Shown here: positions 18,001-24,000 of the stretch, piece by piece
Layout: the number at the start of each line of letters is the position of its first letter
How positions within the stretch are numbered: the stretch's first letter is position 1
Source of the DNA: Candidatus Zixiibacteriota bacterium
GTDB lineage: Bacteria; Zixibacteria; MSB-5A5; GN15; JAAZOE01
Assembly (NCBI GenBank): GCA_043819555.1
Contig: JBDREQ010000015.1
Location: 1 to 52,126, forward strand
Direction of reading: 5' to 3'
DNA: 52,126 nt
Made by a program: the position numbers

Positions 18001-21000
18001 CATTCCGATATAATTGATTCTTTGGTGAATAACGGTTATCGGGGAATCATTATTGCCGGAACCGGATTGGGGCATGTCAATAAGCCGGTTTATCCAGCCA
18101 TAGAGCGGGCCACTAAAGCCGGGGTTGCGATTTATATGACAGTCCAGACGCTGTGGGGTTATGTTCATATGTTCGTTTATGACACCGGTCGCGATTTGAT
18201 GAGCAAGGGAATAATCCCGACAGAAAATATGCTCCCAGAAGTGGCATATATCAAACTCGGCTGGGCGCTGGGGCAGACTGATGATCTGGAGGAAGTCAAA
18301 AAAATAATGTTGACGCCTATTTGCGGAGATATTACTGAGCGGGAGCCGTATGATGGATATCTGATTTATCAGGGCGGAACGCCGGAAATACGAAAATTCC
18401 TGAAATCAAATATTCGATAGTTCAATAATCCAGCCCGGGTAAATTATCTAAATCGAAATGAGACGCCGGTGGTTATTGAATAATCATCAAAATTGTATAA
18501 TGGCTTATTTGAGTTGTTGTTCATATGCTCGATATTAAGCACCGGTTCGATCAAATACTCATGATTTAATTTGACAGGGCATTGAAGGCTTAAATAGAAT
18601 CGATTGACACTATCTTCACGTGGTTTATCTTCAGTTTTGACTTCCAAATATGTTCGATCAAGTCCATCGGCATCATATCGATTGGAAGTGGTCAAAAATC
18701 GTTTATTCCAATGGCCGTATCCAGTGTTTACTATTAATCCTGGTATGGCAAACGATTTAATATTGACTGAAGCGCTTTGCCCTTCCCAGACTGTCGCCCA
18801 AGGTGATAAATATCCGGTTGAAATATCCCACAAAAATCCGCCTCGATAATTTTGAAAATTCTGAATGGTATAGATCAGATTCAGGCCAGTTTTTCTGCCA
18901 AGCGAACGGGATAAACGTGGTGATAGATAAAGCACCCATAAATCGTCTTTAGTGTCGGCGATATCTTTAATCCACATAATATCATAGGGAATGGGTTCGG
19001 GCAAATCGGGGCGCGACAGCGGCCAGCCATCTCCGGTCAGGTTGGCGTCTTTATATAAATAATTGGTACGTCCGTATCCGGCCTCAAAATCAAAACTTGT
19101 CTGCATGGGGAGAACAGCATTTATTCCCATAATAAAATCAAAATCACGCTTATAATCGTTGCCGGTATTGATATAAACCGTCGAGCGAAAAGAAAGGCCG
19201 CCTCGAATATGGAAGCGCGGATTGAGTTGGAATCCGCCAATTAATTTTACCTCGCCAAAATTATTATCGACACCACTAAAATCACTATGATATTTCCGTC
19301 CGTTTAAGCTTGCCGCAAAATAGAGGGAAAATCGTGATATCTCAGATAGGGGGATATAGGTTACATTAAATCTGCCAAAAATATTGCTCAGGCCTATCGT
19401 TTCACGATAATATGTTTGCTCTCCTGATAAAGACACTTTCAGTGAGGGGAGAGGAATATAATCAACTATCGCCGAAGTTATTGAACAGGCGTCATACGTA
19501 GAACTGCTGTCCTGAAGCAGATTACTGCTTGATTTAGTACTGGCGGAAAAATCGATAGAGATTTGTGCCTGAAGAGCCGGCGAGAGAAAAGCTAAAATAA
19601 AAATTAAAGCGGAGAGGATTGAAACTATATGCCGCATACGCCACCTGCGCAGCCGTTGGCAATATTACCCAATCCAATTCCATTGCCGACTCCGAAATCT
19701 ATGCCGAATGTAAAGCCTATCCGTTGATTGGAATGGCAGCGAACATGGAATTCGCGAGCCCCAAAGGCTTCCCGATTATTCAAATAGAGCTTTGTGGAGG
19801 TATTATTACTTAAAGATTCGTTTAGCGACTGACCCAGAATGCCTGGGGCAGCCTTATTTTCAGCGTTTTTATTTTCAAAATCATCCGGAATGCCGTTGCC
19901 GTCATTATCACGATAATTATCGTTGATCCCGTCACCGTCAAAATCGATATATATTGAATTATATATTTTCATCGAGTCTTCGGCATGGGCTGAATCCGTA
20001 GAATATATAAAACTAAGCGCCGTAAATGCTAGAAGCAATAACTTCATATAAATCCCAATCCATACTATGCTTTTGCTCCGTTAATTTATCCACTGCTGGC
20101 GGTTTTGGCAATACCTGTCTTATGATGGTTCAGGGATAGATTTTTAGCCAATCCCTGAATGTACTTTAAATATGACGATCATAAACAATTGGGCGGATTG
20201 CCGCCTTTGAATATATGATTTATTAAAAAGACAGCGTCACCGATATTGACATTATTATCGCAATTGGCATCAGCCCTTTCTGCGGGATCGCTTGGAGGAC
20301 CGCCTTTGAAAATAATATTAATAATGTAAACGGCGTCGCCGACACTTATGCCATAGTCGCCGTTAGCATCACCCCGATTGTGAACGGTTATCTTTAGATT
20401 AGGCGACCATATACTTTCGGCGTCCATTTCATCCTTGACTTTTACACGGTAATTATAATTTCCGGCCATGTTCCAGGCGTGCGATTCAATTGTTTGCGTT
20501 CCCGATTCCACAGGACCAGTCCAATCAGATATATTTCCGTCGCCCCAGTCGAATTTGTACCATAAATCCTGGCCGTCAGGATCGGTGCCATTGGCGGCGA
20601 TTTCGTACGTTCCGTAGGTTATTCCGATTGACGGACCGCTTATATCCATAGGCCGGGGCGGAGTCTGATTTATAAATTGATTGTTGATTATGGAAACCGC
20701 AATTCCGAGATTACCTTCGCTTAGCCAGTTAAGCGTTACGGACAGGCTGATATTCTTGACTTCTCTTACGCCGGAGGATTGAGAAGCGACAACGTAGTTG
20801 GAAAGATTGCCGGACAGGTCACCCGGTGATGCGCCGACCACTACTTGATAACCCCCGTCAACAAAAACGGTAGGAGCGGCTTGTAAATTAAAATCATCAA
20901 AAACCCGACGACTGGCTTCGTTGTTTTTATTATAGATAAGGGAAGCATGATACACATTGTATCCGGCCGCTTGCAACGCTGCTAACGCCTCACGGGCGTA

Positions 21001-24000
21001 AGGGCAAAATGGTCACGTGGTTCGCGTCCCTTCTTCAAAGAGAACCGAATGGGTGTAGTTGCCATCACCTCCTGCAATGCCGGTTTCACCCGGATGAGCT
21101 CCGGTTACAGCGTCCGGGAAATAAGCTGTAAATGGGCCGCTTCCGTCACCCGGGTAAGACAATCTGAATTCACCGTCATTTCCCGAAATAACCGCGATAA
21201 CCATGATATTATCTTCGGCAATATCGCCATACCCATGCGTCGAGCCGCTCCAAACCCGGGTCTCTTCAAAAGTGCCAAGATAAGGAATGGAAAGAGTATC
21301 GTAAAAAGCAAAACCAAGAAATCCATTTTCATATGTCGAGTAATTATAATCTCTCCAGCGAGATACCGGTTCAATTACGTAAACTCGAAGAGTGGCATCA
21401 TAATTGGCGCTAAGGGATTTTTTCGACGGTGAATCTTTATGGACGTTAACTTCTGAATTTATTTTTCCATCTGTTATGGTAATTTCCTTAGATGAATACC
21501 CGGAGTTATCAGCCAATATTCCTCCGCAGACAAGAAATAAAATCAGGATTGCATTGCAACAAACTCTTGTCATGATTTGATCTCCGAAAAGTAAAAAGTC
21601 AAGTCTTAATACGACCCTAAAATTGGGCCAGCCCAGTCTCTTTTATGCGAATAATATACCAATTTAGTTTTCTTTGGCAAGGCAAAAAATATTGCAATTT
21701 ATCATTTATACGAAGGGAATAAGAATTTGGAGTATTTCATTTTCTGAGAGATACTTGATTAATATTAAGGATGAAATTGGACCGGGAATCCACCGGCCGG
21801 CCAGTTGTAAATGTAAACAAAACTAATAAGGGCCATTTCGTAAAAGCGGGGGAAAATCATCCAAATCGGTTTAAAGATGTACTTTACATAATGACTCTAT
21901 AGCGTTATAGGCATGCCCATTAGTGGCCATACGAATCTGACAAAAACAGCTATAACCACAATTAAGAGGATGCTGGCCGGGATACCATAATTAAAGAACT
22001 CTCCGCTTGTAAACTGTTTGCTTTCGTAGGCAATTGCGTTTGGCGCCGCTCCGACGAGAAGCAAGAAAGGCATTCCGGCCGCTACAAGAGACGCGAATAA
22101 AACGACTTCAGGGGCCACACCAAGATATGGCGCCATGGTCAGAGCCACCGGCATGGTAATGGCGATAGCGGCGACGTTCATTATAAGATTTGTCATTATA
22201 AGCACAAATAGCGCGATCCCAATCACGAACGCGAACCAGCCTAAATCATGAAGAATGACAAGCCATTGAATAGCCAGCCATTGGGCGGCTCCCGTTTGCC
22301 ACAGACAAAAGCCGATACTCATGGCCCCGCCAAACAGTAATACGATATTCCACGGGATTTTTTCGAGGTCCTCGATAGTCAGAATTTTAAAAAGGAAAAA
22401 CAAGGCAGTGGATGTCAGGATGATGGCACTTTTATCGACATGTTCAAGTCCGGGTATGTGTTTACTAATGCTAATAGCTAAGATTGTTAGTCCTACTATA
22501 AGAAGAGTCAGTTTTTCGGTTTTGGTAATTTTCCCCAAATGTTTATTTAGCGTCAATGCTCGTTCCCTAAGGCCGGGGATAATTTTATGTTCCGGCCTTA
22601 AAAAAACCATGAAAAATCCCCATAGCAAAAAGACCATGAGAGCGCCGATCGGAAACATATAATACGTTAATTGGAAAAAAGTTATTTCGTGGCCAGTGAT
22701 ATCTCTAAAGAAGCCGATAGCGACCGCTCCTCGTGCCGCACCTAATAGGGTAATTATACTTCCCGCACCGGCGACAAAGGCCATACCCATAAACAAACCT
22801 TTACCGAATTTTGTAGGTCGGTTGCTATCGTCGTATAATGCATAGATGGCCATCAAGAGCGGATAGACAGCGGCGGCAACGGCAGTATGGGCCATGATCA
22901 AAGTCAGGGCAGCAGTCATAATAAAAGTACCCAAATAAATCATGCTTGTTTTTTCACCAACGACCAGCAGCATTTTGTAGGCCATACGCCTGGTTAAACC
23001 GGACCTGGTGAAAGCCATTCCTATTACGACCGAACCGATAATAAACCAAACCGACGGGTCCATGAAATCATTAAAGGCGACTTTGGCCGATCTGATTAAG
23101 AAGATTGCTTGAACAACCCCGATGACAATACTTGTAACTCCAATAGGGACGACCTCAAAAACCCACCAGGTTGCGGCAAGTAAAAACAGCCCCAGCGCGG
23201 CTTTTCCTTCACGAGACAAGATAAAATGTTCTCCCTGTGGACTGACAGCATTGGGCCAGTCAGGCGATATATATATTCCTATAAAGAGTATTAAACCCAG
23301 CGCGATAAAAACCAGGCGCCGGTAGTCTATGCGGCGAGCAACGCCGGCGACATGAATATCGTGCGGCGCTTCAGGAAGTTCTGCTCCCGGAGGTACGCTT
23401 CCTTTAGGTTTAAACTCGTCATTCATGACCGCTCCTGCGAGATTGCGCTATTGGATTAAACATTGAATTCTACAGTAAAATATTGGCGATTTCGTGAAAT
23501 ACATCAACGCTTCGGACAACGCCGACGACATTAGAATCCTTGAGAACCGGTAACAAGGTCAATTCGCGGCTGACCATTTTATAAATTACTTTGGCCAGGT
23601 GATCATCAAAATGAACGGTCGCCACTATTGGCTGCATCACCTCGCTGACCTGTTGCTCAGCTTGTTCCTGCATAGCTTTGGCTATGCGGCCGGCGGATAA
23701 ATCAACCAGGTCAGGATCGATATCAACGTCGAATAGTTGGCCGCGTTTGGGGGCGGTCATGGTTCTCATAAATTTTGGTTCCAGGCCGCGGAAGATATCT
23801 CTCCGACGGACAATTCCCAGTAATTGATATTTTTCGTCAAATACCAGCAGGGCTCTGGGAAGAGAAGTACGATCCTTGTGAGTCAATTCGGATTTATCCA
23901 GTTCCGCCACAGCCTGCCTGAGTGTGAACCAGTACGGAATATGGGGATAATTTTCAAGGGGAATCATAATTTCCCCGGCGCGTTTAGATATCATTGCGCA

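Follow-up and report, generated by a model that had tools for sequence, protein, structure and literature searches.

The stretch of DNA analysed here (the window, 52,126 nt) carries on its minus strand a single coding sequence of 464 codons (20182..21573; terminator TGA 20179-20181), which had been annotated as two genes, g00689 and g00688. Translation of 20179-21573 with TGA read as U yields 464 residues followed by the terminal TGA, and the sole internal stop is the in-frame TGA at codon 187 (21013..21015), where selenocysteine would lie in the motif T-T-U-P-F-C; re-translation of this open frame agrees with the survey's finding of one 464-codon gene. Under translation table 11 the locus is split into ORFs 21013..21573 (186 aa) and 20179..20976 (265 aa), and the 265-residue fragment is present as a separate entry in a public protein collection. 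A GGAG Shine-Dalgarno sequence, read from the sequence, is located on the minus strand 7 nt 5' of the ATG. As the gene's own terminator is likewise a TGA, the TGA at codon 187 does not represent a genome-wide reassignment. On the same strand lie a small, Asp-rich, secreted ORF (140 aa; 19625..20047), homologues of which were found in the fetched flanks of 12 of 90 loci, and, beyond it, a conserved neighbour encoding a putative outer-membrane beta-barrel protein of 397 aa with a signal peptide and no assigned family (18444..19637).

The predicted protein begins with a signal-peptide-like N-terminus (residues 1-21; 21511..21573), recognised from the sequence and from a helix at residues 2-18 of the AlphaFold model, and a hydrophobic 12-mer is found within the first 81 residues of 102 of the 104 homologues with a complete N-terminus. 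Residues 58-166 (21076..21402) form a beta-sandwich (AlphaFold strands, pLDDT >95) without an assigned family, Pfam and NCBIfam scans of the selenoprotein having returned no match in this region. A thioredoxin/glutaredoxin-like fold (residues 177-268; 20770..21045) follows, with a beta-alpha-beta-alpha-beta-beta-alpha arrangement and the active-site motif U187-x-x-C190, and a subsequent beta-hairpin (residues 275-297; 20683..20751) forms part of the sandwich, as seen in the AlphaFold model and in permuted members of the family. Sandwich, hairpin and thioredoxin fold together constitute a compact core (core model pTM 0.93; pLDDT 96.4 for the core and 91.4 for the whole protein). The sandwich and thioredoxin fold occur in reverse order in other members, where the hairpin runs directly into the sandwich (L089).

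The thioredoxin-like domain was aligned to 3gnj_A over 104 residues (VIA Z 11.3, rmsd 2.3), and thioredoxin structures match the selenoprotein model at Z 10-11, while the Pfam Glutaredoxin match (residues 183-240; E 0.0045, 17.6 bits) is below its cut-off of 22.9 and that to Thioredoxin is likewise below cut-off. H175, U/C187, C190 and P234 are invariant among 79 sequences; in the thioredoxin fold, the cis-Pro position and a CPxC-type motif are typical of oxidoreductases. A PKD domain, presumed to act as a spacer (residues 310-398; 20380..20646), was identified by Foldseek (4xed, E 7.5e-12, TMt 0.91), Pfam PKD_4 reaching 25.5 bits at residues 328-387, below its cut-off of 27; PKD is present in 52 of the 79 family members. 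The C-terminus consists of a type I dockerin with two repeated segments (residues 401-454; 20212..20373; Pfam PF00404 Dockerin_1, E 2.7e-7, 31.1 bits, above the cut-off of 22.9), which is found in 37 of the 79 members (E<=1e-3). This architecture supports the earlier description of a signal peptide and of a U/CxxC in a glutaredoxin/thioredoxin-like domain followed by PKD and dockerin, the Pfam figures for Glutaredoxin, PKD and Dockerin_1 being reproduced exactly; the N-terminal domain that was then called unassigned still has no family match, but is now seen to be a beta-sandwich within the compact core.

Among 110 homologous genes of the same phylum, in a sample deliberately enriched for TGA (50 TGA-bearing places and 10 without were chosen among relatives), the codon-187 column holds TGA in 77 and a Cys codon (TGT/TGC) in 31; one of the two others has its TGA shifted by one residue and the second is without this region. 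Homologues with Cys at this position are uninterrupted ORFs. In the unselected list, by hand count and among the 150 matches listed, 83 have one TGA, one has two and 66 have none. A tree of 105 rows requires 18 or more switches between Sec and Cys, nine of these changes being forced by supported branches. Within the organism's own taxonomic family, 20 matches were counted by hand in 13 of the 14 genomes (its own included), 15 with one TGA and five with none. The selenoprotein gene is a member of a large, unstudied Sec/Cys family.

A SECIS-like hairpin, ACGCC-CGUGA-GGCGU (20985..20999, minus strand), with a 5-bp stem and a loop in which G occupies position 2 and U comes next, begins 13 nt past the TGA, at a UGA-to-loop distance of 18 nt. 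Its folding energy is -6.6 kcal/mol by itself, and the 51 nt downstream give a constrained MFE of -12.2. All four criteria for bacterial SECIS elements, taken from the legend to Fig. 2 of PMC13188914, are satisfied by this element and by 59 of 78 Sec forms as compared to 5 of 31 Cys forms; 19 of the 78 Sec forms miss the full set and six miss even the first three. Similarly, a hairpin whose energy is <=-5 kcal/mol and whose loop lies 17-30 nt away from the UGA is present in 57 of 78 Sec forms versus 3 of 31 Cys forms. In two registers of the alignment, pairing extends to 67.1% and 61.8% of the cells (31-43% in off-register slides) with covariation values of 0.31 and 0.27 (0.10-0.16 off register), and none of 500 shuffles reached the observed pairing and covariation. 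The 81-nt region of this gene alone folds no better than its shuffles (z +1.36), and Rfam SECIS families gave no match. RNAalifold over the codon-fixed alignment did not arrive at one shared structure, since the hairpin occupies at least two registers of that alignment.

The genome encodes tRNA-Sec (C25:38574-38668), SelA (C33:12715-14046), SelB (C33:14073-15929) and SelD (C63:76059-76982), the gene for the latter itself containing one TGA, and, among 285 genomes in the phylum, 257 have a SelB scoring above cut-off. The survey's finding is upheld on each of these points: all four components of the machinery were located, the TGA coincides in relatives, the family counts are the same, and the quoted hairpins were found in the gene and its relatives, their compensatory changes being supported. 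Recoding of UGA-187 to selenocysteine is shown to the extent that sequence allows, and SelB and tRNA-Sec would perform it under the guidance of the small hairpin within the ORF.

The family was also compared with selenoproteins already described. The claim that nothing like this protein exists among 119 known families was overstated, since Table 1 of PMC13188914 includes 'Hypothetical protein GOS_C' (NF045500, UxxC), whose model ends in a dockerin-like tail; the part that stands is that the present protein is not an NF045500 member. Other extracytoplasmic entries of that list include, for example, a TonB-dependent receptor, DsbA/DsbG-like proteins and ExtKL. The NCBIfam model NF045500 bears the name 'Omp28-related selenoprotein', and its positions 31-73 align with the family's active-site motif and 314-375 with its dockerin tails. 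It gave no match to the selenoprotein at E<=0.1, matched 19 of 71 core sequences (set A3) at that threshold (best E 4.2e-4), scored at best 30.2 bits among full-length relatives against a cut-off of 200, and exceeded this cut-off in none of the 285 genomes of the phylum. An hhalign comparison of the family with NF045500-like proteins of the same phylum gave 97.7% over 103 columns. GOS_C and the present protein share the UxxC in a thioredoxin-like fold, the occurrence of Sec/Cys pairs and the motif H-T-x-x-x-E-x-x-T-x-x-U/C-x-x-C-P, whereas the latter has a reversed domain order (sandwich ahead of thioredoxin fold) and a PKD spacer. The terms 'dockerin', 'signal peptide' and 'Omp28' are absent from the main text of Zhang and Gladyshev 2008 (PMC2398784), a source for GOS_C. 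With regard to Omp28 itself, a language-model search of the core, using a natural Cys homologue as query, returned Omp28 (PF11551) in 22 of 30 Atlas cluster matches (score 0.94), and NF033782 (outer membrane lipoprotein, Omp28 family) gives a match at the active-site motif for 17 of the 71 members (E<=0.1); PF11551 did not match the selenoprotein at E<=1, and, in contrast to Omp28 proteins, the selenoprotein is no lipoprotein and its domains follow another order. Judged from these alignments, the dockerin-tailed family is a distant relative of the Omp28-like GOS_C selenoproteins, far below the cut-off.

The association with the barrel gene is a new observation of this analysis. Of 90 loci, 56 have a barrel homologue next to the family gene; the two share a strand in 55, and in 50 the barrel gene is directly upstream on that strand. 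None was found in the 1.5-kb flanks of 12 NF045500-matching loci and two permuted members. The barrel protein resembles beta-barrel porin clusters among Atlas structures (TM 0.64-0.83), and by sequence matches OMP_b-brl, SlipAM and MtrB_PioB, in each case weakly. It has no invariant Cys and is thus not itself a thiol relay.

Eight cohesin matches above cut-off occur in the genome, and each of the five scanned cohesin proteins has a match to C-terminal models of type IX cargo (Por_Secre_tail, FlgD_ig or CHU_C; E<=1e-3), Por_Secre_tail being listed in four and above cut-off in three. These tails fit the surface scaffolds proposed in the survey's finding, and SprA and PorU are present in the genome. 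Sixty-six other ORFs match the selenoprotein by its PKD/dockerin end only, and C10 and M28 peptidases with dockerins are encoded in the window. The selenoprotein itself lacks a type IX sorting tail; its docking on the cohesins and its exposure at the surface are predictions. On balance, we favour an exported Sec oxidoreductase with a barrel partner, held on surface cohesin scaffolds.

It is possible, although unlikely, that the same selenoprotein remains periplasmic or at the inward-facing side of the outer membrane and serves the neighbouring beta-barrel there, perhaps by helping it to fold, by controlling its opening or by acting on whatever it lets through; the dockerin would then mediate assembly within the envelope rather than surface display. 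The adjacency of the barrel gene is consistent with such a location, as is the possession of a Sec-type signal only, when the cohesin proteins carry type IX tails. Those same tails on the cohesins, however, also speak against it, and in known systems such as cellulosomes the pairing of dockerin with cohesin occurs outside the cell; furthermore, in one family member, L028_1, the dockerin is replaced by a tail that resembles, by its motif, a type IX tail.

Less likely still is that the U/CxxC binds or handles a metal, metalloid or haem without disulfide exchange. The model for such a function is HBP35 of Porphyromonas gingivalis, a surface protein for which the abstract of PMC2907840 describes involvement in haem use, a motif like that of thioredoxin and a C-terminal domain that attaches it to the surface. 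Also in favour of this reading, several UxxC/UxxU selenoproteins in Table 1 of PMC13188914 are metal-binding, and an invariant His is found 12 residues ahead of the Sec. The A3 profile touches the HBP35 motif (5y1a), but at an E of 0.13, which is not significant; HBP35 itself has thioredoxin activity by the title of PMC2907840, and the cis-Pro position and CPxC-type motif of the present family are features of oxidoreductases. HBP35 resembles the selenoprotein in joining a thioredoxin motif to a C-terminal cell-surface attachment domain, and differs in having Cys in place of Sec, in lacking a dockerin and in being itself a type IX cargo (title of PMC3120885). That the TGA is a true stop, separating two genes or marking a pseudogene, or that it is read through in a selenium-free manner, is very improbable: gene callers split the locus, one piece has its own public entry and the single-sequence RNA fold is unremarkable, but across the phylum 77 genes have a TGA in this column and 31 a Cys codon, hairpins are enriched after the TGA forms only, the genome has the full Sec machinery, the gene's terminal TGA does terminate, and a stop at 187 would sever a confidently predicted thioredoxin fold at its active site.

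The favoured surface-held oxidoreductase shares its fold, the position of Sec as first residue of U-x-x-C where helix 1 begins and, probably, its chemistry with Sec-containing thioredoxin (PF00085) and glutaredoxin (PF00462), UxxC proteins with experimentally verified entries in Table 1 of PMC13188914. These are small cytoplasmic single-domain proteins, whereas the present protein is predicted to be exported, combines the fold with sandwich, PKD and dockerin, and falls below both Pfam cut-offs. As in cellulosomes, a type I dockerin above the Pfam cut-off coexists with cohesin proteins in the same genome; here, however, the predicted cargo is a redox selenoprotein, many other cargoes being peptidases. 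The scaffolds, too, differ in their type IX sorting tails from Gram-positive scaffoldins, which are anchored by S-layer or sortase.

The annotated gene pair almost certainly represents a single gene, whose product is an exported redox protein bearing an active-site selenocysteine and a dockerin anchor, probably a thiol/selenol-disulfide oxidoreductase of the cell envelope or surface. Following export via the Sec pathway, its core, in which the beta-sandwich would pack on the thioredoxin/glutaredoxin-like fold, would present Sec187 for attack on a substrate disulfide or other oxidised sulfur species, and Cys190 would resolve the selenenylsulfide so formed. The protein may act together with the outer-membrane beta-barrel encoded alongside it in most relatives, and would be held, with the genome's many dockerin-bearing peptidases, on cohesin scaffolds displayed by the type IX secretion system.

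The survey's finding that the annotated genes g00689 and g00688 constitute one interrupted gene was borne out by translation of window positions 20179–21573 (reverse strand), which, with TGA decoded as selenocysteine (Sec, U), yields 464 residues followed by a terminal TGA and contains a single internal TGA. The latter is codon 187 (21013–21015, reverse strand), located within the motif T-T-U-P-F-C. Under translation table 11 the locus is split into two ORFs of 186 aa (21013–21573) and 265 aa (20179–20976), and the 265-residue piece is carried as a separate entry in a public protein collection. 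As TGA also terminates the gene itself, this codon is not reassigned across the genome. The host genome (3.35 Mb in 79 contigs, of which the window is contig 15) does possess the Sec apparatus that had been ascribed to it, namely tRNA-Sec (C25:38574–38668), selA (C33:12715–14046), selB (C33:14073–15929) and selD (C63:76059–76982, with one in-frame TGA of its own), and all three proteins score over their family cut-offs.

When residues 1–300 of the window protein were used to search 285 species genomes of the phylum, matches were obtained in 123 of them. Among the 150 matches listed (41 more exist), 83 contained one TGA, one contained two and 66 contained none, as counted by hand, while the taxonomic family alone returned the 15 matches with and five without TGA counted previously. 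A total of 90 loci were read, yielding 110 homologous genes; 30 of these loci came from the phylum search and 60 were fetched additionally and picked for TGA richness (50 TGA-bearing places and ten without), so that the sample is enriched for Sec forms. In the MAFFT alignment, the column of U187 is occupied by TGA in 77 of the 110 genes and by a Cys codon (TGT/TGC) in 31; in one gene (L047_2, a UxxxC variant) the TGA is one residue off, and in one the region is absent. The active-site motif of the family reads H-T-x-F-x-E-E-x-T-x-x-[U/C]-x-x-C-P. A quick maximum-likelihood tree was built from 105 rows, leaving out two circularly permuted members, short rows and rows lacking U or C at this column; it requires a minimum of 18 switches between Sec and Cys, nine of which are forced by well-supported branches. 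Tandem copies are frequent, with a maximum of four per locus, and occur as Sec+Sec or Sec+Cys pairs. At L047:280–333 (forward strand), a one-residue insertion in a family member results in U-x-x-x-C, and a family match with two in-frame TGAs was observed in another genome (G197:C361:3337–4059). The presence of SelB cannot separate carriers of Sec and Cys forms, since SelB is nearly universal across the phylum.

Thirteen nucleotides past the TGA, a hairpin with a 5-bp stem (ACGCC/GGCGU) and the loop CGUGA was identified (20985–20999, reverse strand). The bare hairpin has a folding energy of -6.6 kcal/mol, and the surrounding 81-nt region does not fold better than its shuffles (z +1.36); by itself the window hairpin is weak evidence, and it is the comparison across the family that decides. 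The published bSECIS model specifies a loop of 3–9 nt, a stem of 4–16 bp, a spacing of 16–37 nt, a G within the first two loop positions and an MFE of -7.5 or lower (PMC13188914, Fig. 2 legend). The window element conforms to all four criteria of this model, its spacing being 18 nt and its constrained MFE -12.2. Across the family, criteria i–iii are satisfied by 72 of 78 Sec forms versus eight of 31 Cys forms, and all four by 59 of 78 versus five of 31. Similarly, a hairpin of -5 kcal/mol or lower with its loop 17–30 nt from the UGA occurs in 57 of 78 Sec forms (median -7.6) and in three of 31 Cys forms (median -2.1), a difference for which the Mann-Whitney p value of 1.5e-9 is overstated because the sequences are related. 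The loops vary across the family (GGUCU, CGUGC, GUC, GGC, AGGU or AGUU), and RNAalifold returned no consensus structure over the 78 Sec segments because the position of the hairpin in the codon-fixed alignment varies between two or more registers. Following this null result, pairing was counted separately in two fixed registers, in which 67.1% (register A) and 61.8% (register B) of cells were paired, compared to 31–43% in off-register slides, with covariation values of 0.31 and 0.27, respectively, against 0.10–0.16; none of 500 shuffles reached these values in either register. The pairing is tracked by some changes in amino acid sequence, such as that of the peptide T-R-S-A-L to T-R-Y-W-L where the Arg codon is AGG. 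An Rfam search of positions 20700–21300 at E≤10 gave four chance-level matches, none of which was to a SECIS family. That the window gene is a selenoprotein gene, with TGA-187 specifying Sec, is very well supported, and we have little doubt of it.

The Pfam figures initially given for the window protein were reproduced exactly. The type I dockerin (Dockerin_1, PF00404; residues 401–454) scores 31.1 bits and is over its gathering cut-off of 22.9, while PKD_4 (residues 328–387; 25.5 bits, cut-off 27) and Glutaredoxin (PF00462, residues 183–240; 17.6 bits, cut-off 22.9) are both under theirs. An AlphaFold model generated with 79 homologues (pLDDT 91.4) predicts a signal-peptide-like helix (residues 2–18), a disordered stretch (20–51), a beta-sandwich (58–166), a beta-alpha-beta-alpha-beta-beta-alpha unit (177–268) in which U187 directly precedes helix 190–202, a beta-hairpin (275–297), a PKD domain (310–398) and a dockerin (411–456). 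Foldseek with the full-length model returned PKD matches only, among them 4xed (E 7.5e-12, TMt 0.91), and the modelled domain has a PKD fold despite its sub-cut-off Pfam score. Since only PKD matches had been obtained, the core (residues 52–300) was folded separately with 71 sequences (pLDDT 96.4, pTM 0.93). With this model, Foldseek retrieved thioredoxins (E about 1e-3 to 3e-4, TMt 0.55–0.66), and VIA-align over 48,161 chains gave a Z of 11.3 to 3gnj_A (rmsd 2.3 over 104 aligned residues); a second look was concordant. H175, U/C187, C190 and P234 are invariant in 79 family sequences, and P234 occupies the position taken by the cis-proline in the thioredoxin fold. The predicted structure displays the features of the thioredoxin-fold superfamily, with U/CxxC opening helix 1 and a conserved Pro preceding strand 3, and the modelled fold and the motif point to a thiol oxidoreductase. 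The beta-sandwich, searched within the full-length and core models, had no match in any row of the structure library. An N-terminal hydrophobic segment is present in 102 of the 104 homologues with complete N-termini.

With regard to the placement of the family, individual Pfam models offer little: at E≤0.01, Glutaredoxin matches seven and Thioredoxin five of 71 members, and a PDB profile search of the family produced weak thioredoxin matches only, touching HBP35 (5y1a) at E 0.13. Omp28 (PF11551) matched neither the window protein at E≤1 nor any of the 71 members at E≤0.01. A query of the ESM Atlas with a natural Cys homologue of the window protein placed the core nearest to Omp28 clusters (22 of 30 matches, score 0.94), which is regarded as a lead only. 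The closest catalogued relative is the NCBIfam model NF045500 ('Omp28-related selenoprotein'), which is the UxxC entry GOS_C in Table 1 ('119 families') of PMC13188914. It shares the UxxC motif with the window protein, and its tail (model positions 314–375) aligns to the dockerin tails of the relatives. In contrast, NF045500 begins with its thioredoxin-like domain and the rest of its core follows, whereas in the window protein the sandwich (58–166) precedes the thioredoxin fold (177–268). At E≤0.1, NF045500 matched 19 of the 71 members (best E 4.2e-4), though not the window protein itself, and full-length relatives score 20–30 bits (best seen 30.2), so that neither they nor the window protein reach the cut-off of 200 bits; their matches cover model positions 31–73, which hold the active-site motif, or the dockerin tail at 314–375. 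In the host genome, the matches of NF045500 are confined to other ORFs, and there to dockerin and spacer modules, and no match over the cut-off was found in any of the 285 phylum genomes searched. The best phylum matches to it (60–89 bits) have the thioredoxin domain first, belong to other taxonomic families and in some cases carry a TGA. The family profile recognises only the thioredoxin domain of these proteins (11–39 bits), while it scores 250 and 230 bits on the two permuted members (L088 and L089, respectively); hhalign aligned 103 columns of the family alignment with the NF045500-like alignment at 97.7% (E 2e-12).

The permuted members L089 (G205:C1) and L088 (G219:C7) carry the thioredoxin fold followed by the sandwich and retain the TGA, and are the only family members read with an NF045500-like domain order. 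Both domain orders are represented among the 1319 clusters (50% identity; E≤1e-3) that a HMMER profile search of 1.84 billion representatives recovered, 529 of which pass E≤1e-30, and each order is common among the best 150 representatives. In a collection of genome contigs, no relative of the window protein was found, and a homologue from the same genus gave two PKD-level matches only, to unrelated records. On these results, the window protein and its homologues form a distinct large family inside an Omp28-like thioredoxin-fold group and are related to GOS_C/NF045500 without being members of it.

The same comparison tempers the earlier claim of novelty: the family and its architecture stand as new, but selenoproteins of this kind were known, and among those catalogued the nearest relative, GOS_C, itself has a dockerin-like tail. 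What is new thus covers less than had been claimed. Table 1 of PMC13188914 includes several extracytoplasmic selenoproteins, and neither a dockerin nor a PKD domain nor the architecture of the window protein is listed for any of its entries. GOS_C was described in 2008 solely as a protein having a Trx-like fold with UxxC, represented by 74 Sec and 312 Cys sequences, and the words 'dockerin', 'signal peptide' and 'Omp28' are absent from the main text of that paper (PMC2398784). No statement on the dockerin-like end of the GOS_C model was found in the passages and tables consulted. Judged by title and abstract, no publication was found that joins a selenoprotein to a dockerin or Omp28, although supplements of selenoproteome studies might list members; judged by title, none of those listed on selenocysteine in Zixibacteria concerns the family.

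Downstream of the selenoprotein gene and on the same strand lie a 140-aa ORF and then a gene for a 397-aa protein with a signal peptide. The small ORF (19625–20047, reverse strand), which is predicted to be secreted and is present within the flanks of 12 of 90 loci, has a calcium-binding-like stretch rich in Asp, Asn and Gly, and an end that is rich in Gly and contains Cys. The 397-aa protein (18444–19637, reverse strand), a putative outer-membrane beta-barrel protein, is encoded by a single-copy gene in the host genome. It belongs to no Pfam or NCBIfam family, with only weak matches to OMP_b-brl, SlipAM and MtrB/PioB, and PDB profile and NCBIfam searches gave nothing significant; its Atlas model resembles clusters of beta-barrel porins (TM 0.64–0.83). 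A homologue of this barrel was found inside the short fetched flanks of the family gene at 56 of 90 loci, being located immediately upstream on the same strand at 50 of these (gaps of 0–280 nt), downstream on the same strand at five (four from the window's taxonomic family, the window locus included) and on the opposite strand at one. None was seen in the fetched flanks of 12 NF045500-matching loci or of the two permuted members. This gene pairing suggests a functional link with the barrel, for example in export, anchoring or a shared substrate. A thiol relay via the barrel is unlikely, as no Cys is invariant among 14 barrel homologues.

Eight cohesin matches over the cut-off were found in the host genome, in which the query also has 66 further ORF matches confined to its PKD/dockerin end. 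Each of the five cohesin proteins scanned has a hit (E≤1e-3) among the C-terminal models for type IX secretion; four of them have Por_Secre_tail among their hits, and in three it passes its cut-off. The PorU sortase (623 bits) is encoded in the genome, as is SprA (602 bits summed), the gene of which neighbours selA-selB on contig 33. Within the window, dockerins are borne by a C10 peptidase (5798–9184, reverse strand) and an M28 peptidase (40299–42869, reverse strand), and two M14 carboxypeptidases are encoded at 24678–28423. The cohesins, type IX tails, SprA/PorU and dockerin-bearing cargo of this genome render docking of the window protein at the cell surface plausible. The predicted complex of one cohesin (L127, residues 24–195) with the window dockerin (residues 396–464) scored 0.12 relative to a mark of 0.32, and counts neither for nor against such docking. 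In one protein of this genome (G000:C48:17647–18906), which is adaptor-scaffoldin-like, a cohesin occurs together with a dockerin and a type IX sorting tail, and in a 623-aa family member from another genome (L028, G050:C40) an apparent type IX sorting tail replaces the dockerin. The sprA gene immediately precedes selA-selB, in the same orientation (C33:6742–15929).

Among the other genes of the window, a GatE-like protein (GatB_N, 663 aa) and a GatD-like protein (asparaginase plus GatD_N, 463 aa) are encoded at 15050–18420 (forward strand), a pair representing an archaeal-type Glu-tRNA(Gln) amidotransferase in a genome whose selA and selB are bacterial. At 33576–33983 (forward strand), a stand-alone protein of 136 aa matches PF08915, the 'archaea-specific editing domain of threonyl-tRNA synthetase' (E 2e-36). 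At 10613–14333 (reverse strand), genes for an MttB-family methyltransferase, a corrinoid protein that binds B12 and a homocysteine S-methyltransferase are clustered with a fragment similar to the methionine synthase activation domain. Approximately 22 kb from the selenoprotein gene, a 494-aa protein (43109–44590, forward strand) carries a C-terminal TlpA/AhpC-TSA-type thioredoxin domain and is possibly an envelope reductase.

It is conceivable, though in our estimation improbable, that the barrel and the Sec/Cys enzyme constitute an undescribed two-part outer-membrane system. In such a system, the barrel would serve to export the oxidoreductase or to keep it in place, and the dockerin would place it on the type IX-anchored cohesin scaffolds, near the dockerin-bearing peptidases, where the selenol would open disulfides in extracellular protein substrates or keep surface enzymes reduced. 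If this were true, the window protein would be the redox part of a 'cellulosome-like' complex that degrades proteins and, as far as the literature found and Table 1 of PMC13188914 show, the first described scaffold-bound extracellular selenoenzyme. 

Since gene callers cut the family at the TGA, half of a large family is mis-annotated, and the selenoprotein catalogue gains, within the Omp28-like thioredoxin-fold group, a family or subfamily that is well supported, while its existing GOS_C model is shown to end in a dockerin-like tail. In a phylum in which SelB is close to universal, a selenoenzyme co-occurs with a conserved barrel partner and a peptidase-rich cohesin/dockerin/type IX apparatus, which poses the question of the redox chemistry that anaerobes perform at their cell surface.
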